Positions 6,209-49,308 of a DNA stretch of 64,000 nucleotides are shown here, one piece after another. The DNA comes from Halioglobus sp. Its GTDB lineage: Bacteria; Pseudomonadota; Gammaproteobacteria; Pseudomonadales; Halieaceae. Under the pieces are notes generated by a model, which saw only the letters and a program-made list of their open reading frames with translations, made no database searches and was not told the DNA's origin. The stretch is taken from positions 17,161-81,160 of the forward strand of contig JAPKAY010000011.1 in assembly GCA_028825045.1 (NCBI GenBank), given 5' to 3'. Both the position numbers and the translations under genes were made by a program. The first letter of the stretch is position 1; each line of letters opens with the position of its first letter.

Positions 6209-7132
6209 TTAACGCAAAAGTTCCGGCGCCAGATTCTCGATTTGGCGCTTGATACCTTCACGCCACTCCATTTTTGTCTCGCCAATCAGTTCATGCATTA
6301 TTTGAGTATCGATACACAAACTACCGAAAGCTTTGGGGTTGTCCTGGAATTTTGGCTCGAACCCCGTTAACTCGCTAATGTAGGCACACCATTCCTCAAT
6401 GCTGACTTTTTGTGATCCGCCGAAATTCGTCGTCGTCACCTCAGTGGTGGCCGCACCCAGCAAGTAGGGTATTTTCTCGATGTAGTCATTGACGTGCAGT
6501 GGGTTGTAGTAATTAGGTTTTTCCGGGTGCAAGTCGATAGGGATGCCCTTCTGCATCATCAGCATGTGAAAGTACATCCAGCCGCCATTGTCGCCGTAAG
6601 GCACACTCAGGCGCGCTATGGTGGTTGGGATTTTATGCTGATGCGCGACGAAGCGACATACAGTTTCGGCTGCTATCTTGGAGATACTGTAAGTGGGGAA
6701 CATAACACGGTGGTTGTCGCCCAGGGGCGCATTCTCCGCGCGCGGTTCCTGACCGACATACTCGTAGACGGCAGTAGAGGAGAAATGGAGGAACGCCTTG
6801 GCACTACGGCAGCGCATCATCAAGTTGCCGACGCCCTCCGCATTGGCGGCGAGGTCGTAATCGAAATCACCGCTTTTCACTACAGCGAAGTTCAACACGT
6901 AGTCGAAGTCATCGGGCAGAGCGTCAAGACTGGCAGCATCGGCAAGATCAGCCTGAACAACTGTGGCACCGAGACTTTCAATTCTCTCTCGATCTTCGGA
7001 CTTGCGAAAACGCGCTAACGCATACACATCAGCTATCTTGGCGAAATGCTCCACCACAGGCAGCGCCACTTGTCCCGTGGGACCAGTGATAAGAATTTTC
7101 ATGTCCTTGAGATCGACCGGTTTTGCAGACAT
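6209..7132 (-). CDS. Extended SDR, NAD-dependent epimerase/dehydratase family
   Basis: TGPTGQVA Rossmann motif, SSTAVY, and YSISK (YxxxK). Confidence 0.85.
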   Translation of the reverse strand: MSAKPVDLKDMKILITGPTGQVALPVVEHFAKIADVYALARFRKSEDRERIESLGATVVQADLADAASLDALPDDFDYVLNFAVVKSGDFDYDLAANAEGVGNLMMRCRSAKAFLHFSSTAVYEYVGQEPRAENAPLGDNHRVMFPTYSISKIAAETVCRFVAHQHKIPTTIARLSVPYGDNGGWMYFHMLMMQKGIPIDLHPEKPNYYNPLHVNDYIEKIPYLLGAATTEVTTTNFGGSQKVSIEEWCAYISELTGFEPKFQDNPKAFGSLCIDTQIMHELIGETKMEWREGIKRQIENLAPELLR

Positions 7133-7166
7133 GAATAAAACTCCTAGTTGTTAGTGGATTGGAAGG

Positions 7167-8234
7167 TCAGGCGCTTGCTCGAGGGTAGCTACAGTAGCCC
7201 TCGGCACCCGGGGAATAGAGGGTTGCCATATCAAAACTGGCCAGTTCCACACCATCACGCCAACGCTCGACAAGGTCTGGATTGGCAATGAAATTGCGGC
7301 CAAACGATACCGCCGTTAATTCGCCCTCAATGACAGCTAATTGCGCTTCATCGAAACCGTAGCTCTCGTTGCCTATCAGACGGTCTCCAAAAAAACGTTG
7401 CCCTAATGCGATATTGTCTACCCGACCCGCAGGAAAACGTATGACGTGAAGATAGGCCAAACCCATAGCCGAGGCGGCTTCGAGCAGGCACTCGAATGTC
7501 TCTTGCGGATCATCATCGTGCATATCGTTGAACGGGTTGTCGGGGCATATGCGCAGACCGACGCGATCGGCGCCGCGGACATCAGACATTGCCTCAAGAA
7601 CTTCCATCGCAAAGCGCATTCTGTTGAGGGCGCTGCCGCCGTAGCGATCCGTGCGCTGGTTACTCCCCGTGGCCAAAAACTGGGCCGGAAGATAACCGCT
7701 GGTGCAGTGTAATTCAACGCCATCGAAACCGGCAGCGTACGCGTTTTCCGTTGCCCTTCTATATTGCTCAATAACCGAAGCGATTTCTCCTAGTGCGAGT
7801 TCTCTAGGCTCCTCTAAACTTTGCATTCCACTCTGATCTGTATACATTCTTCCAGCAGCTTTTACCGCCGAAGGCGCAACCGTTTCACTCCCGGGAGGTT
7901 TGTTGAGTGCACTGGCCACCCGACCCACATGCATGAGTTGAGCAACCATACAACCGCCAGCCTCATGTACTCCTTGAGTGACCAACCGCCACGCGTCAGT
8001 CTGCGCCTCATTGTATATGCCCGGAGTGCGACAGTACCCAAGACCATCTGCGCTGGGCGCAATTCCTTCTGAAACTATCAAGCCCGCACTGGCACGTTGC
8101 CTGTAATAATCTACCATGAGCGCAGTAGGAACCCCATCAACGCCGGCGCGACTGCGAGTCATGGGCGCCATCACAATACGGTTGCGCATCGACAGCGCGC
8201 CTAGTTTCGATGGAGTAAACAGATCCATAGTCAT
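7167..8234 (-). CDS. Old yellow enzyme / alkene reductase (NemA-like, FMN)
   Basis: NRIVMAPMTRSRA, QLMHVGR, AGFDGVELH, SNQRTDRYGGS, FGRNFIANPDLV and C-terminal LY...EGY..YP. Confidence 0.9.
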   Translation of the reverse strand: MTMDLFTPSKLGALSMRNRIVMAPMTRSRAGVDGVPTALMVDYYRQRASAGLIVSEGIAPSADGLGYCRTPGIYNEAQTDAWRLVTQGVHEAGGCMVAQLMHVGRVASALNKPPGSETVAPSAVKAAGRMYTDQSGMQSLEEPRELALGEIASVIEQYRRATENAYAAGFDGVELHCTSGYLPAQFLATGSNQRTDRYGGSALNRMRFAMEVLEAMSDVRGADRVGLRICPDNPFNDMHDDDPQETFECLLEAASAMGLAYLHVIRFPAGRVDNIALGQRFFGDRLIGNESYGFDEAQLAVIEGELTAVSFGRNFIANPDLVERWRDGVELASFDMATLYSPGAEGYCSYPRASA

Positions 8235-8236
8235 TC

Positions 8237-8878
8237 CTAACGCACGCGTATCTTCGGTTCTGGTGCCCCGCGCCGCATGCTTGTGAGAAATTGATCCAGC
8301 GGCGCTGGAGCCGCCACCTCAGGCTCGCTCTGGTCGGCTTGAGTGACCCAGAACTCTTTCCAGCTAGGCCACAACTCGTGGTAGGCGCCCTCATAGGACT
8401 CCCGGTCTGGCCAGCGCATCTTATTGTCCCCTACAGGGGGCTTGTTGATATCTGTGGCATACCAATAACAGGGTAGACGGCGACGAAAGTACCAACGTCC
8501 GTCGCGGCGTTCGTAATTGTCCCAGTAGAGCATTTGCATAATGACCCACTCATTACCACCCTCTTTACAGGGTGTCTCGTGCTCGTTCTTGGAATACACA
8601 ACGCCGTGGGCGTGATCTACATCCCCAAACTCAATGATATGATTTCCTATATGGTGGGACGTGCCAATAAATTGCTGTCGTAGGGTATCGTCTAACCAAC
8701 TTTTAAGATGCCCACGACCGACCTTATCGCGACTCACCCGAATGTCGGACACGAACAGATTTACATGCGCGTCCATATCACGCATGTCCAGAGACAGTGA
8801 GTATTTGGCTACTAGCTGACGGATTTCATCCAGGGATTCCAGTCGATCAATACGCGCAAGCAAAGTCTGATCACTCAT
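8237..8878 (-). CDS. SnoaL_4/NTF2-like protein (BaiE/LinA-like dehydratase fold)
   Basis: RLESLDEIRQLVAKY(26)..LD(31), then SH(75)HIGNHII and YWDNYERRDGRWYFRRR. Confidence 0.8.
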   Translation of the reverse strand: MSDQTLLARIDRLESLDEIRQLVAKYSLSLDMRDMDAHVNLFVSDIRVSRDKVGRGHLKSWLDDTLRQQFIGTSHHIGNHIIEFGDVDHAHGVVYSKNEHETPCKEGGNEWVIMQMLYWDNYERRDGRWYFRRRLPCYWYATDINKPPVGDNKMRWPDRESYEGAYHELWPSWKEFWVTQADQSEPEVAAPAPLDQFLTSMRRGAPEPKIRVR

Positions 8879-8892
8879 AAACTGTCATCCTC

Positions 8893-10065
8893 TCAGCCCC
8901 GCCCAAGAATCATTGCGCCCGTGGGCACACCAACGCCACTGCTTACCAGCACATGCTCTACCGCTTTTTCTGGCTGGCTGGTGGAATCGCAGCGTATCAG
9001 ACGGACACCCTCAGCGATATTGTTCATACCATGAATATAGCCTTCAGAAATAAGGCCACCGTGGGTGTTATTGGGCAGGCGTCCATCGACATCAAGCGCG
9101 CCTTCACGCACCAGGTACTTGCCCTCCCCGGCGCCACAAAAACCGAAGCTCTCCAGTTGCATAATAATTTCAGAGGTAAAAGCATCATAAAGACAAGCCG
9201 CATCAATATCATCAGGGCCGAGACCGGACATGTCATAAATGCGCTTGGCCGCCAGCTCCATTTCCGGAAGCGATATTAATTCATCGCGGTAGTAACTAGT
9301 CATCTGTTCCTGTCCGCGGCTGGAGGCCTGGGTCACGGCGCGAATGACGGCCGGTTTTTGTTTCAGATCCCGTGCCCGCTCTGCACTAGTCACCAGTATG
9401 GCGCAGGCGCCGTCTGTTTCCTGGCAGAAATCGTAAAGACACAGTGGTTCAGCAATCTGTTTTGAGTTCAGATACTGTTCCATTGTTAGCGGTTTACCGT
9501 AACCGTAGGCACGCGGGTTACGCAGAGCATGATTGCGCTGTGAAATTGCAACGCGCCCCAGATCCTCCCGAGTAACACCGTACCGATGCATATATTTGTT
9601 GGCGACCATGGCGATCCACGACCCCGGTATCAACATGCCGTAGGGCGTATACCAGGACCAGTGGATAAGGTCGCTGCTGCTAATGTCGCCGGAGACGCCC
9701 TGGCCCATGCGCTTGCCCGAGCGTCCATTCATTGCGCGGTAACAAACGACATTACTGGCCTGACCCGTAGCCACTGCCATCGCCGCCTGAGCTATAGTGC
9801 CCACCGCGGCACCGCCGCCGTAGTTGATCTGGCTGAAAAAAGAGAGGTCGCTGGCACCAACGGCGCGAGCCACCTCCACTTCATCACTCGAATCGAGGGT
9901 GTAGGTAACCAGTCCATCGATTTCTCCAGGACTAATTCCGGCATCGTCACAAGCGGACTTAATGCACTGCGCCGCGAGGGAAAGCTCCGACACGCCCGAT
10001 TGTTTGGAAAAATCGGTTAGTCCAATACCTGCAATGGCCGCTTCATCTTTTAGAGAAATGGGCAT
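8893..10065 (-). CDS. Ltp2-type thiolase-fold steroid side-chain retro-aldolase, copy B
   Basis: AAIAGIG, NYGGG (no nucleophile Cys), DFCQETDGA, LYDAF, NTHGG..SEGYIHGMN. ATG 10065 overlaps the DUF35 stop (TGATG). Confidence 0.88.
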   Translation of the reverse strand: MPISLKDEAAIAGIGLTDFSKQSGVSELSLAAQCIKSACDDAGISPGEIDGLVTYTLDSSDEVEVARAVGASDLSFFSQINYGGGAAVGTIAQAAMAVATGQASNVVCYRAMNGRSGKRMGQGVSGDISSSDLIHWSWYTPYGMLIPGSWIAMVANKYMHRYGVTREDLGRVAISQRNHALRNPRAYGYGKPLTMEQYLNSKQIAEPLCLYDFCQETDGACAILVTSAERARDLKQKPAVIRAVTQASSRGQEQMTSYYRDELISLPEMELAAKRIYDMSGLGPDDIDAACLYDAFTSEIIMQLESFGFCGAGEGKYLVREGALDVDGRLPNNTHGGLISEGYIHGMNNIAEGVRLIRCDSTSQPEKAVEHVLVSSGVGVPTGAMILGRG

Positions 10066-10475
10066 CAAGCACTCCCCGCCAACTTAAAAACAGGCAGTTT
10101 AAATCCATCCGGATCACGCTGGATCAACATCTCAACCTGCAGTCCGAAATCTACGTCCTCAGGCTCGCATCCGACCAGTTGTGAGGTCACTCGCGTACCC
10201 TCCTCCAGGTCTACCAGCACAATAACCAAAGGATATTCATAACCTGGAAACTGAGGATGGCGCAGAACGGTATAACTGCAGATGCTGCCCTTGCCCGACG
10301 CCTCCACAGCATCCCACTCGAGCGAGTGGCAATCTCCACACATCGGACGTGGCGGATGGCGCAGTGTTAGGCACCCCAGGCAGCGCTGTATACCCAGCTT
10401 GTCATCCGCAGCCATTTTCCACCACCAGGCGTTGTCCAGGCCCATTGGTGGCTTTATGCGGGTAGCTTCGGTCAC
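10065..10475 (-). CDS. Stand-alone DUF35 (Zn-ribbon + OB-fold) protein
   Basis: QRCLGC...HPPRPMCGDC Zn ribbon followed by an OB fold. Closely resembles the C-terminus of 13640..14614. Confidence 0.9.
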   Translation of the reverse strand: MTEATRIKPPMGLDNAWWWKMAADDKLGIQRCLGCLTLRHPPRPMCGDCHSLEWDAVEASGKGSICSYTVLRHPQFPGYEYPLVIVLVDLEEGTRVTSQLVGCEPEDVDFGLQVEMLIQRDPDGFKLPVFKLAGSA

Positions 10476-10478: not shown

Positions 10479-11630
10479 TTAAACTTCCAGAGCACGAAAA
10501 CCCAGTGTGTCATCCTCCGCTAACAAACGCCCGAGCCGCTCCAACTGCTGACTCGCATTGCCCAGGGAATAACCAATTTGTTTGGCCATGAGATAAAAAC
10601 GATGGATGGGGTATTCGACATCGGAACCGATACCACCGTGTAAATGTTGGGAGGAGCAGACCACCCGGTGAGCCGCATCACAGGCCCACCACTTTGCCGC
10701 GCGCACTTCAGCCCGGGCATCCAGCCCTTCACTCAAGCGCCACAATGCCAACCAGTAGGTGGAGCGAATACCCTCCACATCGATGTAGCTGTCCGCCATG
10801 CGCATCGCCAGAGCCTGGAATGTGCCCAGGGGAACGCCGAATTGTTCTCGCTCACCTAAAAAGGCGGCAGTGCGCTTCATTGCCTCCTCCGTAACGCCGA
10901 CCTGCAGCGCACAGTGGCCGATGTTGGCGCGCTGCTCCAACCACTCGAGAATTTCCGCGCCCTGGCCCGATGCTCCCAGCAGCGTGTTGTTTTCAACAAT
11001 GACATCAGTCAGCGTTAATTGCGCTGCCAAAGCACCGGACAAACCCATCTCAACAGGCTGCAAATTGACGCCCGGTGCCTTTGCATCGACGATAAATACT
11101 GACACTTGTCCCGCGGAATCTTCCGCTGGTACCAAAATAAAATCAGCTACTGCACCATCTGGGACAACCGCTTTCGTACCATTCAATATCCAGCCACTGT
11201 CTTGTGGCGTCGCGACGACACCTGTAACCAGGGCAGCGTTCATTCCCAGTTCGGCTATGGCGGCGGTAAACTTCGCCTTACCTGCTACCAGCGCGGTGAG
11301 GTAGCGCTGCTGCTGCGACTCAGATCCAAATTCGGCGATGGGCAACCCGCCTAACACCAAAGAAGAATAAACCGGCACAGGTGCCACACGGCGACCTTGC
11401 TCCTCTAACACCAGGCATAACTCAGTCAGCCCAAGGCCGGTACCGCCGGCAGTCTCTGGAATCGCGACTCCCAATAAACCCTGCTCAGCCAATGTCTGCC
11501 AGAGTGGCTCATCGTAAGCCTGGTTTCCGCGTGAAAATTCCAACAGGAACTCATCGCTCGCGCGATCCGTAAAGATTTGGTAGGACAGTTCACGAATCGC
11601 ATTCTGGTCGTCGCTAAAATTAAAATTCAT
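10479..11630 (-). CDS. Acyl-CoA dehydrogenase, FadE27/FadE28-like (non-catalytic partner subunit type)
   Basis: MNFNFSDDQ start at ATG 11630; REQFGVPLGTFQA, ADSYIDV and QHLHGGIG..EYPIHR. Lacks the usual TEP..GSD motif, as in ChsE1/ChsE5-type subunits. Confidence 0.85.
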   Translation of the reverse strand: MNFNFSDDQNAIRELSYQIFTDRASDEFLLEFSRGNQAYDEPLWQTLAEQGLLGVAIPETAGGTGLGLTELCLVLEEQGRRVAPVPVYSSLVLGGLPIAEFGSESQQQRYLTALVAGKAKFTAAIAELGMNAALVTGVVATPQDSGWILNGTKAVVPDGAVADFILVPAEDSAGQVSVFIVDAKAPGVNLQPVEMGLSGALAAQLTLTDVIVENNTLLGASGQGAEILEWLEQRANIGHCALQVGVTEEAMKRTAAFLGEREQFGVPLGTFQALAMRMADSYIDVEGIRSTYWLALWRLSEGLDARAEVRAAKWWACDAAHRVVCSSQHLHGGIGSDVEYPIHRFYLMAKQIGYSLGNASQQLERLGRLLAEDDTLGFRALEV

Positions 11631-11643
11631 GACGCTTAGTGCC

Positions 11644-12348
11644 TCAGTTATTCCTGACCATGACGGCCAAGTTTCGGGTGTATTTGAGTTGTTTCTCATT
11701 CGGATGGCGCAGAAACAATGCTCGATAAAACATCGTTGTCAGCAATTCGGCAATCTGCTCCACGGTAAGCTGCGCTACCCCCAGTGTTTTGCTTTCATTG
11801 ATAAATTGTTCACGTATAAGCCCTTCGCCAATACCCGCAAGAGAATATACGACCATCAACGCCTGGTGCTTTTTAAAGCGCACCTCCGGGAACAGCTTGG
11901 GCATCAGATCTACCAGCCACATCAGTTGATTGCGATAGTTCTCACGCAGCATGGCAGAGAAGGCCTCGTCTTCATCCGCCAGTTGCAGCAAGCAACGCAT
12001 CGCGCCGGGTCGCTTTGCATAACTGCGCACAATCACCAAATTGTGAGCATAAATGCGGGCGTACCAGTCTCCTTTGGATACGTTTTTTTCTATCTTCGAA
12101 AGATCGTTGCTCGCCATGGCAAAATCCGTTAATACTTCCAGGGTCAGTGATTTCAGATCTTTGAAATAGTGATAGAACAACCCCTGGGCGACGCCCGCCT
12201 CGCCAGTCACGTCGGCTATACGCATCTTGTGGTAGCCCTGACGCTCCAGCACGACAAGCGCAGCTTCTTTGAGTCCCGCGCGTGCGCGCTCTCCTCGGGC
12301 GCTTCGCACACCGTTTTGCTTTGCAGTTTTAGATGCTGTTGATGCCAT
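11644..12348 (-). CDS. TetR/AcrR family transcriptional regulator
   Basis: GYHKMRIADVTGEAGVAQGLFYHYFKD helix-turn-helix. First gene of the left arm. Confidence 0.92.
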   Translation of the reverse strand: MASTASKTAKQNGVRSARGERARAGLKEAALVVLERQGYHKMRIADVTGEAGVAQGLFYHYFKDLKSLTLEVLTDFAMASNDLSKIEKNVSKGDWYARIYAHNLVIVRSYAKRPGAMRCLLQLADEDEAFSAMLRENYRNQLMWLVDLMPKLFPEVRFKKHQALMVVYSLAGIGEGLIREQFINESKTLGVAQLTVEQIAELLTTMFYRALFLRHPNEKQLKYTRNLAVMVRNN

Positions 12349-12363: not shown

Positions 12364-12385
12364 TTGAATTTGAATTCAAAATCAA
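12364..12385. promoter_or_regulatory. 22-bp near-perfect palindrome TTGAATTTGAATTCAAAATCAA overlapping divergent sigma70-like promoters; candidate TetR operator
   Basis: 10 of 11 arm positions pair. On +: TTGAAT-16-TATTAT (12364..12391). On -: TTGATT-17-TACTTT (12385..12357). Confidence 0.65.
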
Positions 12386-12420
12386 TATTATGTCTAGCAC
12401 TATCCGCAGAGGCAAATCCA

Positions 12421-13593
12421 ATGTTCGTCGATTACACCGAAAAGCAGAATGCACTGCGCAAAGAGTTTCGCGACTATTTTTCCAAGCTAATTAAGCCCGA
12501 GCACCGCGATGAACTGCGTAACGCCGAGAGTGGGGATCTGTATAAGTCACTCATTCGACAACAGGGCCGAGACGGCATGCTGGCAGTCGGGTGGCCTGAA
12601 GAATACGGCGGACGCGGTCTAAGCCAAAGCGAGCAATTGATACGCTACGAAGAAGCCCTGCTCGCGGGCGCCCCTACTCCTTTCGTGACCCTCAATACCG
12701 TTGGTCCCGCAATCATGAGCAAGGGGACCGAAGAGCAAAAGACACGATTTCTTCCCGGCATTGCCGGTGGAGAACTGCACTTCGCAATCGGCTACACCGA
12801 ACCCAGCGCCGGTACCGATCTCGCTGCCCTGACGACGTCCGCCGTTAAGCATGACGATCACTACCTTGTGAACGGAAACAAGGTATTTACCAGCGGCGCT
12901 GAGGGTGCTGACTACATTTGGCTGGCCGTACGCACGGATCCAGACGTGCCCAAACATAAGGGCATCTCTATTCTAGTGGCAGATACGACAGACCCCGGGT
13001 TTTCCTACGGCGCCATTCACACCATGGGTGGTGTGCGCACCAACGTTACCTACTACTCAGACGTGAAAGTGCCTGCAGACATGATCATTGGTGAGGAAAA
13101 TCGTGGCTGGCGTCTGATCACCGAGCAGCTGAATCATGAGCGCGTTGGGCTCGCGGCATGGGGTATACAAGGCTGGAAGATCTATCGCTTGGCGCTGGAC
13201 TGGGCGCGGAATACAAAAAATGCTCAAGGCCAGAGAGTAATCGACGACCCCGGCGCTCAACGCAATCTTGCGGAAGCGTATGTTCACCTGGAAGCCATGC
13301 GAGTAATGAATGCGCGCATGTCCTGGCAGCTGGACCAACACGAACTGGACCCGGTTTTCCCATCGGCTATCAAAGTGTATTCAACCGAGAAGATGCTGGA
13401 AATATGCCGCCTGTTAATGGATATGGTTGGACCACATTCACTGATTGCCGCCGGCAGCGAAGGCGCCGTACTCCATGGTGATCTGGAACATGAATATCGA
13501 CGCGCCACTATTAACACTTTCGGCGGTGGCGTGGTGGAAGTATTGCGCGGCCTGGTCGCCACCCACGGCCTTGGCATGCCAACGCATCGTTAA
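12421..13593 (+). CDS. Acyl-CoA dehydrogenase, FadE26/FadE29-like (catalytic subunit type)
   Basis: Start ATG 12421 (MFVDY). AIGYTEPSAGTDLA, KHKGIS, QLNHERV (catalytic Glu), WARNTK...RVID and TFGGG..EV. Confidence 0.9.
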   Translation: MFVDYTEKQNALRKEFRDYFSKLIKPEHRDELRNAESGDLYKSLIRQQGRDGMLAVGWPEEYGGRGLSQSEQLIRYEEALLAGAPTPFVTLNTVGPAIMSKGTEEQKTRFLPGIAGGELHFAIGYTEPSAGTDLAALTTSAVKHDDHYLVNGNKVFTSGAEGADYIWLAVRTDPDVPKHKGISILVADTTDPGFSYGAIHTMGGVRTNVTYYSDVKVPADMIIGEENRGWRLITEQLNHERVGLAAWGIQGWKIYRLALDWARNTKNAQGQRVIDDPGAQRNLAEAYVHLEAMRVMNARMSWQLDQHELDPVFPSAIKVYSTEKMLEICRLLMDMVGPHSLIAAGSEGAVLHGDLEHEYRRATINTFGGGVVEVLRGLVATHGLGMPTHR

Positions 13594-13639
13594 AAACTGC
13601 AATCACAGTTAATACTGAGCACTAGGAGAACTCCCCCCA

Positions 13640-14614
13640 ATGACAGCTAATGAGCTAAACGCCTTCGAGGACGAAATCAACGCCTTTGTGGGCCGCGAAG
13701 TCTGCCCACCCACACCGGCAAAAGACGACGTCAATACTGCAATGATCCGTCAATGGACTGAGATCATTGGCGACACCAACCCTGCTTATACTAATGAAGC
13801 CTGGGCGGCAAAAAGCACACGCGGCAAGTCGATCGCGCCGCCAGCGATGATGTATGTGTGGGGCCAGGAAGGATTTGCCGTTACTACCGGCCGACCCGCC
13901 GATGCACAGGCCGACCTTGTCAGTCTGTTCAACAAACACGGCTACACCGGCGTGCTGGGCACCAATGTCAAACAGGAGTATTTCAAGGAGGTCAGCCCGA
14001 ATGACAACGTTGTCATGGAGATGGTCATTGACAATATCTCTGAGCGGAAAACTACCGGGCGTGGACCCGGCTACTTTTTTGAAACTTTGTCCACTTTTAC
14101 AAACCAGCATGGCGAAAAAATTGGAACCCAGCGCTTCAAGGTGTTGAAGTTCATTCCCCAGGAGCAACCTGCCGCTCCAGCCGCCGAGGACACACTGCAG
14201 GTTCCCACGCGTATCGCCTCACCTCGTGGTCATGACAACAAATGGTGGTGGGATGCATGCGATGCTGGAAAAGTGCTGATTCAACGCTGCAAAAGCTGCC
14301 AGACACTGCGCCACCCTCCTCGGCCCATGTGCGGCGAGTGCCAATCCATGGAATGGGATTCAATCGAATCCACACTCGATGGTGAAGTCCTCAGCCACAC
14401 AGAACTCCATCATCCCAAAATACCCGGTTACCAATATCCGCTGGTATGCGCGGTGATCAGATTGGGAGAGGGAACCAATATCGTATCCAATGTAGTGGGC
14501 TGCGATCCCTCTGCGGTGCATATTGGCATGCAGGTAAAAGGCAAGGTCGAGCAGGTGGATGAAAAAACTATGCTGCCACAATTCTATCCGGCGTCATCAG
14601 GAATACGATCATGA
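13640..14614 (+). CDS. chsH2: ChsH2-like protein: MaoC-like N-domain fused to DUF35
   Basis: IRQW...GDTNP.Y...APPAM hotdog N-domain plus C-terminal QRCKSC...HPPRPMCGEC Zn-ribbon/OB fold. Sits in the ACAD-chsH2-chsH1-ltp2 gene order. Confidence 0.82.
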   Translation: MTANELNAFEDEINAFVGREVCPPTPAKDDVNTAMIRQWTEIIGDTNPAYTNEAWAAKSTRGKSIAPPAMMYVWGQEGFAVTTGRPADAQADLVSLFNKHGYTGVLGTNVKQEYFKEVSPNDNVVMEMVIDNISERKTTGRGPGYFFETLSTFTNQHGEKIGTQRFKVLKFIPQEQPAAPAAEDTLQVPTRIASPRGHDNKWWWDACDAGKVLIQRCKSCQTLRHPPRPMCGECQSMEWDSIESTLDGEVLSHTELHHPKIPGYQYPLVCAVIRLGEGTNIVSNVVGCDPSAVHIGMQVKGKVEQVDEKTMLPQFYPASSGIRS

Positions 14615-15042: not shown

Positions 15043-15045
15043 GCC

Positions 15046-41869: not shown

Positions 41870-42543
41870 ATGAAGACAACATCGATAACGCAGATAGCAG
41901 CAAGCGTTCTGAGCGCACGACTAAAACCCGTAGGTTGTTTATCGAGGCGGGCCAACGCCTTTTCGCACAACGCGGTGTCGGTGCTGTTTCAGTCAACGAA
42001 ATCACGGGCGCCGCAGGCCAGAAAAATCGCACTGCCCTGCAATACCATTTTGGCGACAAGAACGGCCTGCTAACCGCCATCATTGAAGTACACGCAAAAC
42101 GCGTCTTCGAACTGCGTCAGCAGTATCTCGATAGCAATATTTATGACAACTCAAAAGCATCACGGCGCGCCGCTCAAGCGTTGGTCAATCCACTAGTACA
42201 GTATATCGAGGAAAATAATACGGCAGTTTTTTACGTTAAAATTCTGTCCCAACTCGCTGCAGTAGACAGCCATCTTCTTCATCCCAGGACCAGCTCAGGG
42301 ATCAGTAAGCTAAAAGATGACCGGCTGCATGCACTAATGCAGAGCGCCGTGGCACATTTGCAACCACCTGAAGCACAGCGCCGCCTGTTTCTGGTGGTCT
42401 CCTTCCTCTTTCACAGTTACTGCGGCATTTTACAGATGAATGACAGCAGCGATACCAGCGACATACTGTTGCAGCGTTCGGCAATGTTTAGCCAGGTAGC
42501 CCTCGCGGTCGAATCAATTCTGGAAGCGCCTCCACTGCAGTGA
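41866..42543 (+). CDS. TetR/AcrR family regulator
   Basis: LFAQRGVGAVSVNEITGAAGQKNRTALQYHFGDK. ATGA overlap with the redoxin gene. Confidence 0.9.
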   Translation: MNEDNIDNADSSKRSERTTKTRRLFIEAGQRLFAQRGVGAVSVNEITGAAGQKNRTALQYHFGDKNGLLTAIIEVHAKRVFELRQQYLDSNIYDNSKASRRAAQALVNPLVQYIEENNTAVFYVKILSQLAAVDSHLLHPRTSSGISKLKDDRLHALMQSAVAHLQPPEAQRRLFLVVSFLFHSYCGILQMNDSSDTSDILLQRSAMFSQVALAVESILEAPPLQ

Positions 42544-42577: not shown

Positions 42578-44509
42578 TCAGCGGAGATCAGTATGAGGGA
42601 TGGTTTTGGCGGTGGATTGCGCCTGAGCGGAATACCAAATAGGCGATGACCACGCCCGCTCCTGAATCACTCGCTGGTGTTCTGGTGCGCAACAATCCTC
42701 CAGGCCCTCGCCTATACTTTGGGGATTGCTGCAGTCCACCGCTTTTGCGACACAGATCTGTTGGCTCCAACGACAGGACGGGTTTTCCAGTACGCGGCTG
42801 TAGTAGTAGGCTTTTTCTTCGGGCCTAAAATTATCGTCGGTCCACACACTGCACAATTCTTTAAACCCTTTCCCACGGGTGACGCAGGTTTGGGTATTAA
42901 CAGACGCACCGTTGTCGGCGTCGCCCGCCACGTCGATGACGTCCTCGCGGTACTCCCCTGCTTCGGTGAGCCAGCCTTTGATGATTTGCACTCGCTGCAA
43001 CCCGATACCGGGCGCGGATGAGGTACCCGGGTCCTGCTGGGCCATCACAAGGAAACTAGGATTGCCGCCGCCGGCACTGAGCATCCCGCCCATAGGCACC
43101 CCGCCGGCATAGGCCTGCTCGATACGATCATGGTCAGAACACAGCGATGGCGAATAGTCCCAGCCACCGAAAAAGCGACTGGTAATGCGCGGACCACTGG
43201 TACTGTATGCCTCTCTGCGACGCAGGGCTTCATACAATGCATCGCGACTGTTTTCCTGCGCCCACAGCACCGCCAGCCCTCCGGGATTGTTCTCAAGTGC
43301 GCCCGGCAGCCCCGGGGGCACACGCTCCTTCGCCGGCGCATCGACACCCCCGTGACCAATGTAGTTTGCCTCCGACACGGCACCCGCAGCGCCCAGATGG
43401 GTATCAGTGCTGCCCACAAAGCCAATTTGATACGGGTTTACGCCGAACTCGCTCTCTAATAACAAACCGTCTCCCAGTGCCTTGCGAGCAAAACCGGTTT
43501 TAGGCCCAGGAGGATTATTAAATCCAGCAAGATTGTCGATAGGTTGCAGTTCGAAGTTACACAGCTCATCGCGAGTGATCCCGGCCTTGAAGTAGCACTC
43601 GGAGGATCCGCCCTTTTGCATGATTTCCAACAAAGGTTCGAAGCGCTGGCGCAATTGCGCGTATTCACGGGTCATCGCACTCCCATCGTCCCGTTTGCCA
43701 TCAAACATATAGCCTGCGCTAAGATTTGCATTGTGGGGTATCACCAGCGCGTCACAGTTGCCGTCCTTCTGAACACATTGCTCATCCAGAGCACGCCACA
43801 GTTTTTCCGCTGTGGATTCATCGATAAAAGTGATGGGCAGTGGCGGAACCTCAGCGTTTCTGAATACGATATTCCGGTGCAAATTGCCGCCAGACGTTGG
43901 CTGCATACCGGTCCACTCGTATCCAACGAAGGCAGTAAACTGACACTCGGATGTGCGATCGTAGTGTCGTTGGGCAGCCTGCTGGGTGTCTGTCCACGGC
44001 TTCACCGCGGCCTGTCGGCACAGGGCATCATCGTCTCCACACATTCCCAGGTGGGCGGCCTGCATCGATGCCATGTAGTTAAACAAATAATAAGCGCCCA
44101 GGGACCAGTTGCGGTATATCCAGCACTGCCAGGACTGGTAGCCCTCCAGCTCTGGCGTATTACACATGTGGAGTTCACCGTACAACTCGGCATGATCCGC
44201 TACCATGGCAAAATCCAATGGTCTCTCGAGTTGCACAGTCCGCAGACTCTCACCTCTGTCGTTAAAGGGTTGAATGCCGATGTTCTCGCCCCTGGCGAAT
44301 CGGTAAGCCTGCTCGGGCGTAGTGCGGGTTCCCTGAGTACTCGCATCGAGAGAGAGACGCGTGTGCACATGCAAATCCCCGAAAAAGGCTTGCATCAGCG
44401 GTTTATGTGAACTGCAGGGTTCGCGTTTTTCCGTATATTGGCGTTCAGCGTTGGCCAGGGCCGATGTCCACAGCAAGCCAAGCCACAAGAACATCCAGAC
44501 TGATTTCAC
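42578..44509 (-). CDS. Secreted DUF3604 (PHP-fold-like) protein
   Basis: Signal peptide; FFGDLHVHT..SLDA, LDFA.V.DHAE, GYEWT, NLHRN, IPHN.N.S, GSTDTH, WA.EN.R..L..A..R.E and QERAWSSPIWY. Confidence 0.88.
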   Translation of the reverse strand: MKSVWMFLWLGLLWTSALANAERQYTEKREPCSSHKPLMQAFFGDLHVHTRLSLDASTQGTRTTPEQAYRFARGENIGIQPFNDRGESLRTVQLERPLDFAMVADHAELYGELHMCNTPELEGYQSWQCWIYRNWSLGAYYLFNYMASMQAAHLGMCGDDDALCRQAAVKPWTDTQQAAQRHYDRTSECQFTAFVGYEWTGMQPTSGGNLHRNIVFRNAEVPPLPITFIDESTAEKLWRALDEQCVQKDGNCDALVIPHNANLSAGYMFDGKRDDGSAMTREYAQLRQRFEPLLEIMQKGGSSECYFKAGITRDELCNFELQPIDNLAGFNNPPGPKTGFARKALGDGLLLESEFGVNPYQIGFVGSTDTHLGAAGAVSEANYIGHGGVDAPAKERVPPGLPGALENNPGGLAVLWAQENSRDALYEALRRREAYSTSGPRITSRFFGGWDYSPSLCSDHDRIEQAYAGGVPMGGMLSAGGGNPSFLVMAQQDPGTSSAPGIGLQRVQIIKGWLTEAGEYREDVIDVAGDADNGASVNTQTCVTRGKGFKELCSVWTDDNFRPEEKAYYYSRVLENPSCRWSQQICVAKAVDCSNPQSIGEGLEDCCAPEHQRVIQERAWSSPIWYSAQAQSTAKTIPHTDLR

Positions 44510-45330
44510 ATTGCGCGACCAGAGGTCGAGCCGTACCGTTTCGCATGCGCATCCAGGGCATCAAGAATGCCCTCATGACGGCCGGCGATAATGTCCCGAT
44601 AGTCGTCGTGGGTGATGACATAAAATCCACTTTCACGCACGGCATCAATCACCTGCTCGCCCACCGCAAGTGGTGGAATGCCAGCGGCGACATCCGGAGC
44701 CGGTTGCTGGTGATCGATACCCGAATCAAAGGCCTCTGGACGAACAGCGGACGACTGGGTGATCAAGTTGGTATTGACTAAACCCGGGCACAGCACGGAG
44801 ACGCCGACGCCTTTATCTGCCACTTCCATCAACAGTGCCTCAGAGAGCCCCACGATGGCGAACTTCGTAGTGGTGTAGAGCCCTTCCGGAGGACCGGAAA
44901 TGAGACCACCCATGGAGGCGGTATTAACGATGTGCCCTTCGCCCTGGGCCACCAACATAGGCAGAAATGCTCTTACACCGTGAATGACGCCGTACAGGTT
45001 TACATTAATGAGGTACTGCCAGTCTTTGATATCGGCATCATGCATTAGGGCCCCTATCCAAACACCGGCGTTGTTGCACAGCAGATGAACACCCCCGAAG
45101 CGTTCCACGGCAGCATCACGCATCGCCTCCACCGATTCCAAATCGGAAACGTCTACCTCAAATGCATGAGCGTTCTTCCCTATATCGGCGGCCACTACCT
45201 GCGCCTTTTTGATATCAATATCCGCTACCAGTACTTTCATACCTGCCTGGGCAGCAGCGCGGGCAATACCCTCACCAATTCCCGAGCCTGCACCAGTAAC
45301 GACAGCCACTTTGCCTTCCAAATCCTGCAT
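44506..45330 (-). CDS. Classical SDR oxidoreductase
   Basis: VTGAGSGIG, LCNNAGV, NTASMGG, YTTTKFA and SVLCPG.V.T. Confidence 0.9.
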   Translation of the reverse strand: MQDLEGKVAVVTGAGSGIGEGIARAAAQAGMKVLVADIDIKKAQVVAADIGKNAHAFEVDVSDLESVEAMRDAAVERFGGVHLLCNNAGVWIGALMHDADIKDWQYLINVNLYGVIHGVRAFLPMLVAQGEGHIVNTASMGGLISGPPEGLYTTTKFAIVGLSEALLMEVADKGVGVSVLCPGLVNTNLITQSSAVRPEAFDSGIDHQQPAPDVAAGIPPLAVGEQVIDAVRESGFYVITHDDYRDIIAGRHEGILDALDAHAKRYGSTSGRAM

Positions 45331-45369: not shown

Positions 45370-46389
45370 TCAGGCTTGGCAGTCGACCATTACTTTTATC
45401 GCGCTTTGAGGATTTTGGGCAGTCGCAAATGCGGCACCTATGTCAGACAGCGGAAAATGGTGCGTGACCATTACCGTCGGATCTATTGCGGATGATTGCA
45501 ACATCGCGATAACTTCATCGAACTCCCGGTCATAACCCATCGCAGGAATGATAGAGACTTCCTTGGCCAGCAACATAACCAGGTTAATGGTGGCCGAATC
45601 CTTGTGCACGCCTGTAAGGCAGATGCGACTGCCAGGTCCGGCTATATCAACGATATGCTCAAATACAGCGCGGACACCGGTGGCTTCGAAGAACAGCGTA
45701 CTACCGGGCATGGGCATACCAAAAAAACTACTTGAACCGTGATGTTCAATTAATTTCTGCGCCAATTGAGAATCATCACCACGCAATCCAATGGCGCCCA
45801 ACGCACGCGCAGCATCCAGTCGCCGCTCAGACAGGTCTACTAAAACCACATCCGTGAGACCTCGGTAAGTCAGAATCTGCAACATGGACAGACCAATGGG
45901 GCCCGCGCCGAAGATGACCGCCTTGTCCGTAGCGCTTGCCTTAACCCTGTTAGCCCCGTGCTGAGCAACCGCCAGCGGTTCCACAAGCGCGCCGTATTCG
46001 TCGGGAAAATCCTTCGGCAACACCACAGTGCTTCCAGGATCGGAGGCAGCGTTACGCACCAGCAGATAGGGAGAGAAGCCGCCCTCCGTACCACCATTGC
46101 CAATATTATTGCCGTTACTCATGGGCTGTACCACCACACGTTCACCGGCCTTTACATGCGTAACGTTAGCACCAGCCTCACTCACCACACCCCACAACTC
46201 ATGGCCTACTGGCATGGGAGTGTCCGGGCCAGTCAATCCGCCCATGGCCAGATAGCCAAGATCAGAACCGCAAATGCCACATTCTCTAACCTGAACCACC
46301 ACGTCATCAGGCCCGCATAGCGGCTGTGGCGCTGTACCAAGTCGTAAATCGTCCACACCGTGGATTCGAGCCTGGGGAATCGCTGTCAT
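45370..46389 (-). CDS. Zn-dependent MDR alcohol dehydrogenase lacking the structural-Zn loop
   Basis: CGICGSD, GHE, EPLAVA and GAGPIG present; no Cx2Cx2Cx7C lobe. Confidence 0.85.
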   Translation of the reverse strand: MTAIPQARIHGVDDLRLGTAPQPLCGPDDVVVQVRECGICGSDLGYLAMGGLTGPDTPMPVGHELWGVVSEAGANVTHVKAGERVVVQPMSNGNNIGNGGTEGGFSPYLLVRNAASDPGSTVVLPKDFPDEYGALVEPLAVAQHGANRVKASATDKAVIFGAGPIGLSMLQILTYRGLTDVVLVDLSERRLDAARALGAIGLRGDDSQLAQKLIEHHGSSSFFGMPMPGSTLFFEATGVRAVFEHIVDIAGPGSRICLTGVHKDSATINLVMLLAKEVSIIPAMGYDREFDEVIAMLQSSAIDPTVMVTHHFPLSDIGAAFATAQNPQSAIKVMVDCQA

Positions 46390-46561: not shown

Positions 46562-48271
46562 ATGCCCGTGAACAATTCAGATCTGGAAGTGGACTGGCTG
46601 GTGGCAGGTGCCGGGGCTGCTGGCATGACTGGCGCTGTTGTTGCGAATCAGTTGGGCGGGTCGGTACTGGTAGTTGAGAAAGAAGCTGTCTATGGCGGTA
46701 CCACTGCAAAATCTGGCGGAGTGGCCTGGATCCCTGCAAATCATCGCCAGGCAGAGGTTCATGTAGAGGATACTACCGAAGAAGGCTATGCGTATCTCAA
46801 AGCGCTGATCGGTGACAGCGTGAGCGATGCCCGCATCCGGGCCTATGCAGAGCGTGCAAAAGAGATGTTGCAGTTCATGATGCAACACAGCCATGTCCAG
46901 TATTCTGCGCTGCCAAAATACATGGACTACTACGAACATCTCAAAGGGTACAAAGTGGGCGGGCGGTCCATGGACAACACTCCCATCAACCTCCGCCGAC
47001 TGGGCTCTGATGCGGCAAGCATCAGGCTGGGCCACTACGATGGTCTCATGCCGTTCAATGTCACCGTCCAGGAAGGCCAGCGCCTGCAGGAAATGGACGC
47101 TGGCGCCTATCTGCTTGGCATGCGCCTGCTATTGCGTTTTCTATTGGACATTCCCGCTCGGTTCAAGCACAAACGTGATGACCGACTTACCCTTGGGCCT
47201 GCGCTGGTCGCTCGATTGCGTCTATCACTACAGGACAGAAAGATCCCACTGTGGCTGGATTCCCCGATTCAGGAACTCGTACTAGACAAGGGGCGAGTCT
47301 GCGGAGCGCTAGTGCAACGTGCCGGCACCACCACACGCGTCAGTGCACGGCGTGGCGTGCTCTTGGCCACGGGCGGTTTTTCTCACAACGCGGAAATGCG
47401 CAGACAATATCAGCAGGCACCCATTGGTAATGAGTGGACCTCTGCAGCGCCAGGAGCGACAGGTGATGCGGTCGTACTGGGGCAAAAAATTGGCGCGGCC
47501 CTGGGCTTCATGGAATGTGCCTGGTGGTCTCCCACTTACACCATACCGGATGGACGAGTACTGGCACTGATCGCTGGAAAATCCAATCCCGGCTCTATCA
47601 TGGTCAATCGCCTGGGTAAACGCTTTGCTAATGAAGCTCAGCCTTACGAGGACCTGGTTAAAGCGCAATACATCAGTGATGCCAAAGGTGAACAGACTAT
47701 TCCCTGTTACCTGGTATTTGACGCTATTTATCGCAAAAAATACGCTGTCGGACACATCAAGCCAGGAAAAGTGGAAGATGATAAAAAGCTTGATCCAGCT
47801 AACTTCGAAACCGGACTGCTCACCAAAGCGGATAGTTTGGAAGAACTCGCGCGCAAGTTAGAGATTAACCCAGGCGTGCTACAGGATACTGTGAAACAGT
47901 TTAATCGCCATGCCCTCAATGGTGAGGACCCACTCTTTGACCGCGGCGTGAGCGAGCATGATCGGTACTATGCAGACAAATCGGTCAAGCCCAATCCATC
48001 CCTGGGCCCACTGGACACGCCTCCTTACTACGCCCTGCGCTGCGACCCGGGCGACTTAGATACCAAAGGGGGATTACAGTGCGATGAACTGGCGCGCGTT
48101 ATCAATACTGACGGTGCAGTCATCAAGGGGCTGTATGCTGCCGGCAATGCCAGCGCGGCTGCCATGGGCAATACCTATCCGGGCGCAGGCGCGACCATCG
48201 GCTCAGCCATGACTTTTGCGTATATAGCAGCGCAAAATGCCTTTGCTCCCAACTCCACTTCGGAGGAATAG
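46562..48271 (+). CDS. kstD: 3-ketosteroid delta-1-dehydrogenase
   Basis: GAGAAG, GGTTAKSGG..WIP.N, MDYY, ATGGF.HN..MR, FANEAQPY, GDLDTKGGL and YPGAGATIG; the Tyr/Gly catalytic motifs are present. Adjacent to kshA. Confidence 0.82.
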   Translation: MPVNNSDLEVDWLVAGAGAAGMTGAVVANQLGGSVLVVEKEAVYGGTTAKSGGVAWIPANHRQAEVHVEDTTEEGYAYLKALIGDSVSDARIRAYAERAKEMLQFMMQHSHVQYSALPKYMDYYEHLKGYKVGGRSMDNTPINLRRLGSDAASIRLGHYDGLMPFNVTVQEGQRLQEMDAGAYLLGMRLLLRFLLDIPARFKHKRDDRLTLGPALVARLRLSLQDRKIPLWLDSPIQELVLDKGRVCGALVQRAGTTTRVSARRGVLLATGGFSHNAEMRRQYQQAPIGNEWTSAAPGATGDAVVLGQKIGAALGFMECAWWSPTYTIPDGRVLALIAGKSNPGSIMVNRLGKRFANEAQPYEDLVKAQYISDAKGEQTIPCYLVFDAIYRKKYAVGHIKPGKVEDDKKLDPANFETGLLTKADSLEELARKLEINPGVLQDTVKQFNRHALNGEDPLFDRGVSEHDRYYADKSVKPNPSLGPLDTPPYYALRCDPGDLDTKGGLQCDELARVINTDGAVIKGLYAAGNASAAAMGNTYPGAGATIGSAMTFAYIAAQNAFAPNSTSEE

Positions 48272-48273
48272 GC

Positions 48274-49308
48274 ATGGCGACGCACAAATACGCTTTTCTC
48301 AAAGAGGGCCATTACGCCAGAGGGTGGCACGTTGTCCTTTTTTCGCAGGAGTTGAAAATAGGTGAGGTTAAAAAGCTGCACTATTTTGACCATGACTTTG
48401 TCGCCTACCGCGGGGAGTCCGGCCGCGCTGCGATCCTTGATGCCCACTGCCCTCATCTAGGCGCGTCCCTTGCCAGTGGTGAGGGACGCGTGCTGGGCGA
48501 CAATATCGCCTGCCCGTTTCACGGCTGGACCTTCGACCCCACTGGCCAGTGTGTCGATATTCCCTATGCCAAATCCATCCCTCAAAAAGCAGCGCATGCC
48601 CTAAAGGGATGGCCGGTGTTAGAACAAAACGGGTTTATCGCTCTTTGGTACGACCGCCAAGAGAATAAGCCTGAACTCTATTTACCCGACATTCCCCAGT
48701 GGGGGCCCAACGGCTGGGGCGACTGGGTGTTTTATCGTTCGCGGATTCGGGCCCAGCCCTGTGACATCATCGAAAACATCGTCGACATCGCGCATTTCCC
48801 ACACGTGCACGGTGGCTTTGTTACGTCATGGGAAAATCGCTTTGACGAACGCAGCGTAACGCAGCTATCGACAATCAAACAGGACCCAGACGCCAACATG
48901 ATTATCCCGGAGGGTGTGGTCCTGGACGTTAAGGCAGCGCGCAGTGAGGCGGGTGACGACGCAGATGCCTGGGGTGACGCTACTTATCATGGGCCGTCCA
49001 TCATGTACTACTATACCGAGTCGAAAAGTGCGGATATCAGTTTCAGAAGTTGGTGGGTAAACTGCCACACGCCTGTTAACGCCACTGAGGTTGATTTGTG
49101 TTCAGCGGTTATGGTCAGCGGTTTGAATGATGAGCCCCTGCCGGAGGAGTTTGCGCAGTTGTATCCACAAATGGCGCACGTGGCTTTTGGCCAGGACGTA
49201 GAGATTTGGAAAGACAAAGTGTATCGGGAAGACCCTATTTTGTGTGATGGCGACGGTCCCATCAATAAACTGCGGAGCTGGTACGAGCAGTTTTATCTAC
49301 CAAAGTGA
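48274..49308 (+). CDS. kshA: Rieske oxygenase, 3-ketosteroid 9-alpha-hydroxylase KshA-like
   Basis: YARGWH, CPHLG and CPFHGW Rieske ligands, ENIVDIAHFPHVH Fe site, and QDVEIWKDK...P.LCDGDGPI..LR.WYEQFY. Confidence 0.78.
   Translation: MATHKYAFLKEGHYARGWHVVLFSQELKIGEVKKLHYFDHDFVAYRGESGRAAILDAHCPHLGASLASGEGRVLGDNIACPFHGWTFDPTGQCVDIPYAKSIPQKAAHALKGWPVLEQNGFIALWYDRQENKPELYLPDIPQWGPNGWGDWVFYRSRIRAQPCDIIENIVDIAHFPHVHGGFVTSWENRFDERSVTQLSTIKQDPDANMIIPEGVVLDVKAARSEAGDDADAWGDATYHGPSIMYYYTESKSADISFRSWWVNCHTPVNATEVDLCSAVMVSGLNDEPLPEEFAQLYPQMAHVAFGQDVEIWKDKVYREDPILCDGDGPINKLRSWYEQFYLPK

Follow-up and report, generated by a model that had tools for sequence, protein, structure and literature searches.

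Does the 43-kb gene island carried by a Gram-negative bacterium, Halioglobus sp., equip its host to degrade sterols, side chain included, or does it serve some other lipid? Sterols constitute a large, slow-turnover pool of marine carbon and, to our knowledge, Proteobacteria were before 2018 thought incapable of using them in an oxygen-dependent manner. The island lies within 64,000 nt of contig JAPKAY010000011.1 (assembly GCA_028825045.1), a stretch referred to below as the window; positions are 1-based within it. The contig is 88 kb long and belongs to a draft genome of 3.83 Mb in 136 contigs, rated 100% complete, of a gammaproteobacterium of the Halieaceae (OM60/NOR5). A listing of open reading frames (ORFs) and family scans of the window showed lipid and steroid catabolic genes packed from ~6.2 to 49.3 kb. 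Proteins were scanned against NCBIfam, with its curated equivalog cut-offs, and Pfam, and were compared by bit score with the sequences in PDB. We conclude that, as judged from sequence, the window very probably encodes the sterol side-chain and ring-activation part of aerobic 9,10-seco steroid catabolism in the Halieaceae.

A preliminary description of this DNA had listed homologues of a P450, an acyl-CoA dehydrogenase (ACAD) pair, ChsH1 and ChsH2, two Ltp2 proteins, FadA5, Hsd4A, KstD and KshA, and family scans together with PDB matches recovered every one of them at or near the place it had given (Table 1). A minus-strand operon (11699-6209) for an ACAD, a stand-alone DUF35 protein, an Ltp2-type protein, a SnoaL_4 protein, an old-yellow-enzyme flavin oxidoreductase and an extended short-chain dehydrogenase/reductase (SDR) is opposed to a plus-strand operon (12364-16221) for the second ACAD, ChsH2, ChsH1 and the second Ltp2, with a TetR gene separating the two. 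A further plus-strand operon (19041-22381) holds FadA5, the Hsd4A-like SDR and a double hot-dog hydratase. The minus-strand block that follows (28293-22435) encodes the P450, a sulfotransferase-fold protein, an SDR, a DUF1214-like protein and another SDR, with a ChrR-type cupin and a luciferase-like monooxygenase (LLM)-class oxidoreductase upstream. KstD and KshA (46562-49308) form the right end of the island and are followed by a cold-shock gene.

The two ACAD genes stand on either side of the TetR gene and match chains A (alpha) and D (beta) of PDB 4x28, whose database name is only generic and which we take to be the Mycobacterium tuberculosis ChsE4-ChsE5 (FadE26/27) complex. By gene neighbourhood and structure matches the pair is of the heteromeric alpha2-beta2 ChsE4-ChsE5 type, the heteromer itself being a prediction. 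The public gene calls for the two subunits are probably somewhat shorter than our ORFs (alpha, 390 aa with a start at 12421; beta, 383 aa, 10479-11630). ChsH2 matches the DUF35 part of ChsH2 in 6ok1_B at 111 bits and the ChsH2/ChsH1 hot-dog structure 4wnb at ~82 bits; in its own hot-dog domain, motif alignment places a Tyr where the hydratase motif has His. ChsH1 is 47% identical to a Nocardia copy that adjoins ltp2. Ltp2 copy B, in the ChsH operon, retains Tyr293 and Tyr343 and is 84-96% identical among relatives; copy A, 55% identical to it, has Tyr294 and Tyr344. These two tyrosines are presumably the catalytic ones of the 6OK1 Ltp2. From its sequence we assign copy B as the retro-aldolase predicted to take off the last C3 unit. 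In FadA5 the catalytic residues Cys92, His347 and Cys377 are all present. FadA5, both Ltp2 copies, a crotonase (PRK06190) and both LLM enzymes of the island pass NCBIfam cut-offs. The best matches are steroid enzymes rather than general fatty-acid or terpene enzymes, and catalytic and pseudo-catalytic residues agree with this, which bears out the earlier proposal that the genes serve sterol side-chain degradation.

By homology, degradation would begin with the CYP125/124-clan P450 oxidizing a terminal methyl of the C8 side chain, and a CoA ligase from outside the island would form the 26-oyl-CoA. The ChsE4/ChsE5-type heteromeric ACAD would desaturate the CoA ester, and a hydratase (the crotonase, or a MaoC/Hsd4B-like enzyme), the Hsd4A-like dehydrogenase and the FadA5 thiolase would carry out two thiolytic cycles. 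The last enoyl-CoA would be hydrated by ChsH1-ChsH2, and Ltp2, docked on DUF35, would cleave it in a retro-aldol reaction to a 17-keto steroid and propionyl-CoA. KstD and KshA would then act on rings A and B, opening ring B, and the rings would be finished by the products of HsaA, C, D, E, F and G genes and IpdABC-like genes on other contigs.

Table 1. Features of the island and its right flank. Percentages are amino-acid identities; G046 is a complete genome of the same genus.
Feature	Position	Strand	Evidence
Extended SDR, NAD-dependent epimerase/dehydratase family; last gene of the minus operon	6209-7132	-	Pfam Epimerase
Old-yellow-enzyme flavin oxidoreductase, NemA-like	7167-8234	-	PRK10605 308 bits, under cut-off 403; 74% in G046
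SnoaL_4-fold protein, accessory	8237-8878	-	Pfam match; absent from G046
Ltp2 copy A, candidate thiolase-fold retro-aldolase, accessory	8893-10068	-	PRK07855 571 bits (cut-off 469)
Stand-alone DUF35 protein (zinc ribbon + OB fold)	10065-10475	-	Pfam zf-ChsH2 + OB_ChsH2_C
ChsE5/FadE27-type ACAD beta	10479-11699	-	6wy8_A (Tcur3481) 280 bits; 4x28_D 205 bits
TetR regulator between the ACAD genes, divergent from the alpha gene	11644-12348	-	TetR_N; position conserved across Halieaceae
ChsE4/FadE26-type ACAD alpha	12364-13593	+	6wy8_B (T. curvata Tcur3483) 387 bits; 4x28_A 380 bits
ChsH2, non-catalytic hot-dog fused to DUF35	13640-14614	+	Pfam FAS1_DH_region + zf-ChsH2 + OB_ChsH2_C
ChsH1, catalytic hot-dog hydratase subunit	14611-15042	+	HadB-like match; D-x4-H motif retained
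Ltp2 copy B, core retro-aldolase (assigned)	15046-16221	+	PRK07855 569 bits (cut-off 469); 6ok1_A 447 bits
Abhydrolase_10 alpha/beta hydrolase, accessory	16694-18280	+	Pfam PF20091 453 bits; only some close relatives
Single-domain MaoC (R)-hydratase with catalytic motif	18308-18775	-	Pfam; 74-96% across Halieaceae
FadA5, steroid 3-ketoacyl-CoA thiolase	19041-20216	+	NF005889 616 bits (cut-off 515); M. tuberculosis FadA5 4ubv 486 bits
Hsd4A-like SDR, MFE-2-type (R)-3-hydroxyacyl-CoA dehydrogenase candidate	20297-21211	+	PRK07792 325 bits, under cut-off 414
Double hot-dog hydratase, Hsd4B-like or fused ChsH2N-ChsH1-like, accessory	21329-22381	+	Pfam FAS1_DH_region + MaoC
Classical SDR, conserved core	22435-23214	-	NCBIfam; 79-85% in relatives
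DUF1214-like protein, 465 aa	23381-24778	-	Pfam/NCBIfam
SDR of the three-gene run	25039-25896	-	Pfam/NCBIfam
Sulfotransferase-fold protein	25897-27072	-	Pfam/NCBIfam
CYP125/CYP124-clan P450, presumed sterol C26 (terminal methyl) monooxygenase	27097-28293	-	PDB matches, synteny
ChrR-type cupin	28295-28747	-	Pfam Cupin_7; constantly adjoins P450 (synteny)
LLM-class (F420-type) oxidoreductase, TIGR03617	28900-29925	-	347 bits (cut-off 278)
MarR-family regulator	29993-30445	+	Pfam
Crotonase-type enoyl-CoA hydratase, EchA19-like candidate	30564-31334	+	PRK06190 323 bits (cut-off 253)
SDR	36302-37177	+	NCBIfam; block 36302-39290 kept, 83-85% in G046
LLM oxidoreductase, TIGR03857	37240-38406	-	NCBIfam, cut-off passed; same conserved block
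SDR	38526-39290	+	NCBIfam; same conserved block
SDR + zinc-dependent alcohol dehydrogenase	44506-45330 + 45370-46389	-	NCBIfam; upstream of and divergent from kstD; 81-85% in G046
KstD, 3-ketosteroid delta-1-dehydrogenase family	46562-48271	+	PRK12844 566 bits, PRK07843 549 bits; both under cut-offs ~789
KshA, Rieske oxygenase of 3-ketosteroid 9-alpha-hydroxylase	48274-49308	+	Pfam Rieske + KshA_C (latter 195 bits)
MlaA	53988-54746		Family scan

The order of genes within 10 kb of FadA5 (DUF35, ACAD, TetR, ACAD, ChsH2, ChsH1, Ltp2, MaoC, FadA5, Hsd4A, SDR, P450, cupin) is shared by dozens of species of Halieaceae, and also by near-identical contigs from metagenomes, and because the identical order recurs so widely we exclude chance as its origin. 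A ChsH2 orthologue was found in 93 of 201 family genomes, among them all 22 of the same genus, and of the 40 genera of the family, 25 have the cluster. Across the order, 41 of 301 genomes had a FadA5 orthologue (64-84% identity), and these represent 12 families; in a scan of species-representative genomes, FadA5 was 82-97% identical in Haliea, Halioglobus, Pseudohalioglobus and Seongchinamella, ~70% in Myxococcota and 57-63% in Actinobacteria. One of the sequences collected, from a metagenome-assembled genome (MAG) labelled Nitrosopumilus sp. (CAXQNK010000020.1, locus L035), carries FadA5 (72%), Hsd4A (69%) and MaoC; in the FadA5 tree it falls together with a MAG of Pseudomonadales, and it is most likely a mis-binned gammaproteobacterial contig, not an archaeal one. 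In the complete same-genus genome G046 the entire 43 kb is syntenic, from the extended SDR through KshA to MlaA. The G046 island lacks the DUF35-Ltp2A-SnoaL genes, the double hot-dog hydratase, the sulfotransferase run, one LLM, MarR, PhyH and DUF3604, and we therefore describe the island as a stable core with variable accessories.

The pathway reading is anchored by a close relative that has the same genes and grows on cholesterol. Holert et al. (2018; mBio; PMC5790920) isolated cholesterol degraders from sponges, including the Halieaceae strain BC51, and a 2019 preprint (10.1101/775916) reports growth of 'Haliaceae sp. BC5-1' on cholesterol and deposition of its draft genome (PRJEB30766). 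The corresponding locus, L004 ('Halioglobus japonicus isolate BC5_1'), has 12 cluster genes at 77-94% identity in the same order, although neither the ACAD-alpha gene nor that for ChsH2 was detected less than 10 kb from its fadA5. The strain shares family and habitat with the window host but is a different species. Its P450 orthologue (87%) is publicly annotated "Steroid C26-monooxygenase", and several P450 copies in JGI metagenomes are annotated 'cholest-4-en-3-one 26-monooxygenase'. The preliminary description was thus right that the trait is not new in marine gammaproteobacteria. Its suggestion that the gene organization might be new holds insofar as no paper dissecting the Halieaceae cluster itself was found in the literature searched; the organization is, however, common and partly annotated in public Halieaceae genomes.

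KshA starts 3 bp past the end of the kstD ORF, and the pair is conserved in the family. KshA orthologues were found in 33 of 101 family genomes and lie 26-37 kb from ChsH2 in five listed same-genus genomes, as they do in the window. KshA scores 205 bits with Rhodococcus KshA (4qdc) and 178 bits with 2zyl. The nearest structure to KstD is 7p18, a proteobacterial 3-oxosteroid dehydrogenase (432 bits, against 259 bits for Rhodococcus KstD1); its database name is only generic, and we take it to be AcmB, the cholest-4-en-3-one dehydrogenase of Sterolibacterium. Elsewhere in the host genome, contig C65 carries genes for HsaA-like, HsaD-like, HsaE, HsaG and HsaF proteins consecutively. HsaG and HsaF pass their cut-offs, HsaE narrowly misses its own (397 against 409 bits), whereas HsaA (381 against 450), HsaD (175 against 400) and, on contig C96, HsaC (246 against 450) fall short and are therefore best named Hsa-like; each protein scored highest with the Hsa equivalog or with the biphenyl sister of that family. 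Contig C91 has a CoA-transferase gene followed by ORFs with the size and order of IpdA-IpdB-IpdC, a crotonase and an ACAD; the first ORF alone was scored (as CoA_trans), the rest being assigned from size and order. Because Hsa-like genes and this IpdABC-like run are present on other contigs, a complete 9,10-seco route in the host genome is plausible. Additional homologues in the genome comprise one KstD-like gene, four KshA-like genes and two heteromeric-type ACAD pairs (contigs C14 and C111). In Rhodococcus, inspection of the fadA5 flanks showed no hsa or ipd genes within 10 kb.

Several findings weigh against our interpretation. KstD, Hsd4A, HsaA, HsaC and HsaD are all under their NCBIfam equivalog cut-offs, as are the SDRs of the island. 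Roughly half of the 43 kb is taken up by genes to which no pathway step is assigned. No AMP-binding protein, and hence no FadD19/FadD17-type CoA ligase, was seen among the island genes scanned, and a genome-wide search for MCE proteins gave one three-domain PqiB-like and one single-domain protein only, with no Mce4-type array. The ACAD pair fits the Tcur3483/3481 pair of T. curvata slightly better than 4x28, which bears on the preferred side-chain length. The P450 is only 36-38% identical to the fadA5-adjacent P450s of four actinobacterial loci (Mycobacterium, Gordonia, Streptomycetaceae), and it scores as well with CYP124 as with extant CYP125.

Some of these points suit a different substrate. 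The island might mainly serve steroids with short carboxylated side chains (bile-acid-like C5/C3 acids) rather than C8 side chains, with the P450 acting on another lipid. The leaning of the ACAD pair towards the T. curvata proteins agrees with this, T. curvata having a cholate-type cluster only (Bergstrand et al., 2016), as does the lack of a steroid-26-oyl-CoA ligase in the island, and the two aldolase modules resemble the proteobacterial aldolytic Shy/Sal route (PMC11321319). Yet the conserved core includes a CYP125/124-clan P450 in tight linkage, FadA5 is above its equivalog cut-off, and ChsH2 matches the actinobacterial ChsH2 DUF35 far better than the 'acyl dehydratase' 9myr_B (40 bits). 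Strain BC5-1, moreover, has the same genes and grows on cholesterol, and both uses are compatible. We therefore regard short side chains as an improbable main substrate and retain C8 sterol side chains. Candidate CoA ligases are present on contigs C120 and C96.

The P450 invites a second alternative, in which the side-chain genes act on non-steroid methyl-branched lipids or isoprenoids (phytanate-like compounds, terpenoid acids) and the proximity of KstD and KshA is coincidental. The protein scores 404 bits with the reconstructed ancestor CYP125MRCA, 280 bits with CYP124, a methyl-branched lipid omega-hydroxylase, 254-265 bits with extant CYP125 and ~200 bits with CYP142. Its membership of the clan is clear from these scores; for family membership it falls short of the line (>40% identity) against the sampled fadA5-adjacent P450s. 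The island also encodes a PhyH-family dioxygenase (31398-32519; Pfam), and the genome is rich in paralogous beta-oxidation clusters such as that on contig C120. Against this, ChsH2 with its DUF35, Ltp2 and the FadA5 equivalog are steroid-specific families, the linkage of KstD-KshA to the ChsH, Ltp2 and ACAD genes is kept in several genera (13 kb apart in genome G027), and the PhyH gene is one of those missing from G046. A non-steroid function is accordingly very unlikely, and the sterol reading stands.

Contig C120 itself had been suspected of being a ring-degradation cluster on account of its density of ACAD, Ltp and enoyl-CoA hydratase paralogues, and was rejected when NCBIfam gave no Hsa or Ipd genes there. 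Its region 15000-73000 (L081-L085) encodes ACADs, CaiB-type CoA-transferase/racemase-like proteins, two FadD-like acyl-CoA ligases, DUF35 and Ltp-like pairs, a 3-hydroxy-3-methylglutaryl-CoA-synthase-like protein and a flavin monooxygenase. We class it as a further cluster of beta-oxidation type; the ligase and racemase missing from the sterol island may come from here.

The best characterized relatives of every core protein are actinobacterial, which raises the question of whether this one organism gained the island recently from an actinobacterium. In a tree of 45 sequences the window protein falls within a clade of FadA5 proteins (support 99); thiolases from Shewanella, Halopseudomonas and Alphaproteobacteria, at 41-44% identity, lie outside it. 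Within the clade, a single starred group unites the Halieaceae with Myxococcota and certain other Gram-negative MAGs; the Actinomycetota branch lower down. Since the Halieaceae copies belong, together with those of Myxococcota, to an old Gram-negative clade, we do not consider the island a recent actinobacterial import. Its GC content is even (0.50-0.56, uniform over the whole window), the distribution over genera and families described above is broad, and neither near-identical actinobacterial sequences nor mobile-element borders were seen. Identities to actinobacterial copies are only 32-63% (FadA5, 57-63%; Ltp2, 54%; ACAD alpha, 45-49%; ChsH1, 47%; Hsd4A, 43-45% for copies close to fadA5; P450, 36-38%; ACAD beta, 32-35%). 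Recent transfer can thus be given almost no credence. The earlier characterization of the toolkit as actinobacterial in style is sound as regards homology; the genes appear, from their phylogeny, to have long resided in Gram-negative lineages, and the regulator, the uptake genes and KstD are not of the mycobacterial kind.

Comparison with the cholesterol route of M. tuberculosis and Rhodococcus jostii RHA1 makes this concrete. Shared features are the heteromeric type of ACAD, a catalytic ChsH1 with a non-catalytic, DUF35-bearing ChsH2, an Ltp2 in which Tyr/Tyr stand where thiolases have cysteines, the Cys-His-Cys triad of FadA5 and adjacent chsH2, chsH1 and ltp2 genes; actinobacterial genomes, too, have LLM oxidoreductases and the sulfotransferase/SDR/DUF1214-like run alongside these genes. 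In contrast, the Halieaceae island has a TetR protein that is not KstR-like, one ACAD pair and a second DUF35-Ltp2 module, and its KstD (of the 7p18 type) and KshA share the island with the side-chain genes. F420-type oxidoreductases stand alongside genomic F420 synthesis.

The testosterone and bile-salt pathways of Comamonas and Pseudomonas (Shy/Sal, Tes/Scd) resemble the proposed one in being Gram-negative, in the 9,10-seco ring route and in side-chain cleavage with MaoC, DUF35 and a thiolase-fold aldolase, but the window ChsH2 and Ltp2 match actinobacterial structures far better. Bergstrand et al. (2016) counted the OM60 clade among predicted steroid degraders; they reported that Proteobacteria lack Cyp125 and Cyp142 orthologues, that no tested strain of the Comamonas/Pseudomonas type metabolized cholesterol, and that there was no evidence for proteobacterial cholesterol catabolism by the 9,10-seco route. 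Doherty et al. (2025) regard CYP125 as actinobacterial in origin. In another order of marine oligotrophic gammaproteobacteria, SAR86 (Magnimaribacterales), homologues of fadE26/27, fadE34 and cyp125 were described in 2024 (ISME J; PMC11582366); according to that paper most SAR86 lack ring-cleavage genes, whereas the window genome has Hsa-like ones.

The remaining beta-oxidation enzymes are assigned less specifically. In the double hot-dog hydratase the C half retains D-x4-H and the N half is without the His; the crotonase scores 190 bits with the EchA19 equivalog, under the cut-off of 400, and is 81% identical in G046. Which of these hydratases would serve which cycle is a matter of homology. 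The preliminary description had also named a 3-alpha/20-beta-hydroxysteroid dehydrogenase (HSD)-like SDR. Seven SDRs are indeed present; none could be tied specifically to 3-alpha/20-beta-HSD, and the conserved SDR at 22435-23214 matched generic SDR structures only. Because no steroid dehydrogenase was among its top PDB matches, no 3-beta-HSD candidate could be named from it. The extended SDR at 6209-7132, which is kept beside the old-yellow-enzyme gene in G046 (86%), is a possible candidate for a 3-beta-HSD-like role.

The accessory genes include what looks like a second hydratase/aldolase kit (8237-10475 and 21329-22381), with the same domains in other fusions, found in some Halieaceae and missing from others. 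Orthologues of Ltp2 copy A are 87-88% identical in loci L016 and L021, and its presumed partner, the stand-alone DUF35 protein, is 48% identical to the DUF35 portion of ChsH2. The LLM at 28900-29925 is 44% identical to a Rhodococcus ORF 5 kb from fadA5. The sulfotransferase/SDR/DUF1214-like trio is adjacent also in Rhodococcus erythropolis, Nocardia flavorosea and a Myxococcota MAG (L101-L103, L110), in reverse gene order relative to transcription. We assume a tie of this run to the cholesterol regulon through Rv3529c-Rv3531c; a search of its neighbourhood in Rhodococcus for recognizable steroid genes gave one ACAD and one crotonase only within 20 kb.

Contig C98 of the host (12630-16645; L108, L118-L120) encodes CofD (265 bits, above cut-off) and, ~0.8 kb downstream, a 907-aa frame with a C-terminal part that matches CofH (494 bits, above cut-off) and a weak N-terminal match, which looks like a fused FbiC. 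The two LLM oxidoreductases of the island may therefore truly use F420 in this Gram-negative host. We have considered, as a tentative and rather doubtful extension, that the accessory genes (DUF35, Ltp2 copy A and SnoaL; the double hot-dog hydratase; the two LLMs; the sulfotransferase run) give a capacity absent from the actinobacterial pathway, namely a second aldolytic cleavage, taking C24 alkyl branches off algal and sponge sterols, or the processing of sulfated sterols, with F420-dependent chemistry. If true, either option would place such chemistry within a Gram-negative sterol pathway.

Regulation and uptake also appear to follow lines of their own. Compared with PDB, the TetR protein between the ACAD genes gave nothing beyond generic matches to TetR N-termini (<=27 bits), with neither KstR nor KstR2 among them, so that by sequence it is not KstR-like. 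As the genome has no Mce4 array, sterol uptake cannot run through Mce4. Directly upstream of the island (1-4679; C114:14321-17350) are genes for an MMPL/RND protein and a Ycf48-like BNR protein, then DUF3450, two ExbB-like, one ExbD-like and one TonB-like ORF, the ExbB/ExbD/TonB-like run at the left edge of the window having been identified by eye. Given the absence of Mce4, we propose the MMPL/RND protein and the TonB-ExbBD run as an uptake candidate. These genes and MlaA on the other side confirm the Gram-negative envelope flanks noted earlier.

From the MarR gene to the zinc-dependent alcohol dehydrogenase gene, the order is MarR, crotonase, PhyH, a membrane protein, a DUF1254/DUF1214 protein, two SDRs flanking the second LLM, a CitMHS transporter, AhpC, a second TetR (41866-42543), DUF3604, SDR and the dehydrogenase. 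DUF3604 proteins are unusually many in this genome, with 10 paralogues (32-61% identity) at 42578-44509 and nine other places. Two candidate steryl-ester hydrolases are encoded, the Abhydrolase_10 protein and, 10 kb downstream of the island, a type-B carboxylesterase (COesterase family; 59668-61221); the BC5-1 preprint (10.1101/775916) reports that cholesteryl ester is formed in these bacteria and that RHA1 and M. tuberculosis have no sterol esterase homologue. Outside the island, at 56271-58945, an ACAD gene is followed 5 bp later by one for an APH-family kinase with a C-terminal DUF6285, an ACAD10/11-like pairing.

The island adds one more instance of a trait previously demonstrated in the family and visible in public annotation; its novelty is low, since a close relative carrying these genes has displayed the trait in culture. 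The window offers a clean, fully linked example of probable Halieaceae sterol genes and leaves knowledge of the trait itself unchanged. It differs from the mycobacterial model in regulator, uptake system, second aldolase module, KstD type and F420-type enzymes. We believe that it is a useful map for the genetics of BC5-1 and for the interpretation of marine metagenomes, and that the accessory modules and the F420 link are the parts that may reward follow-up.

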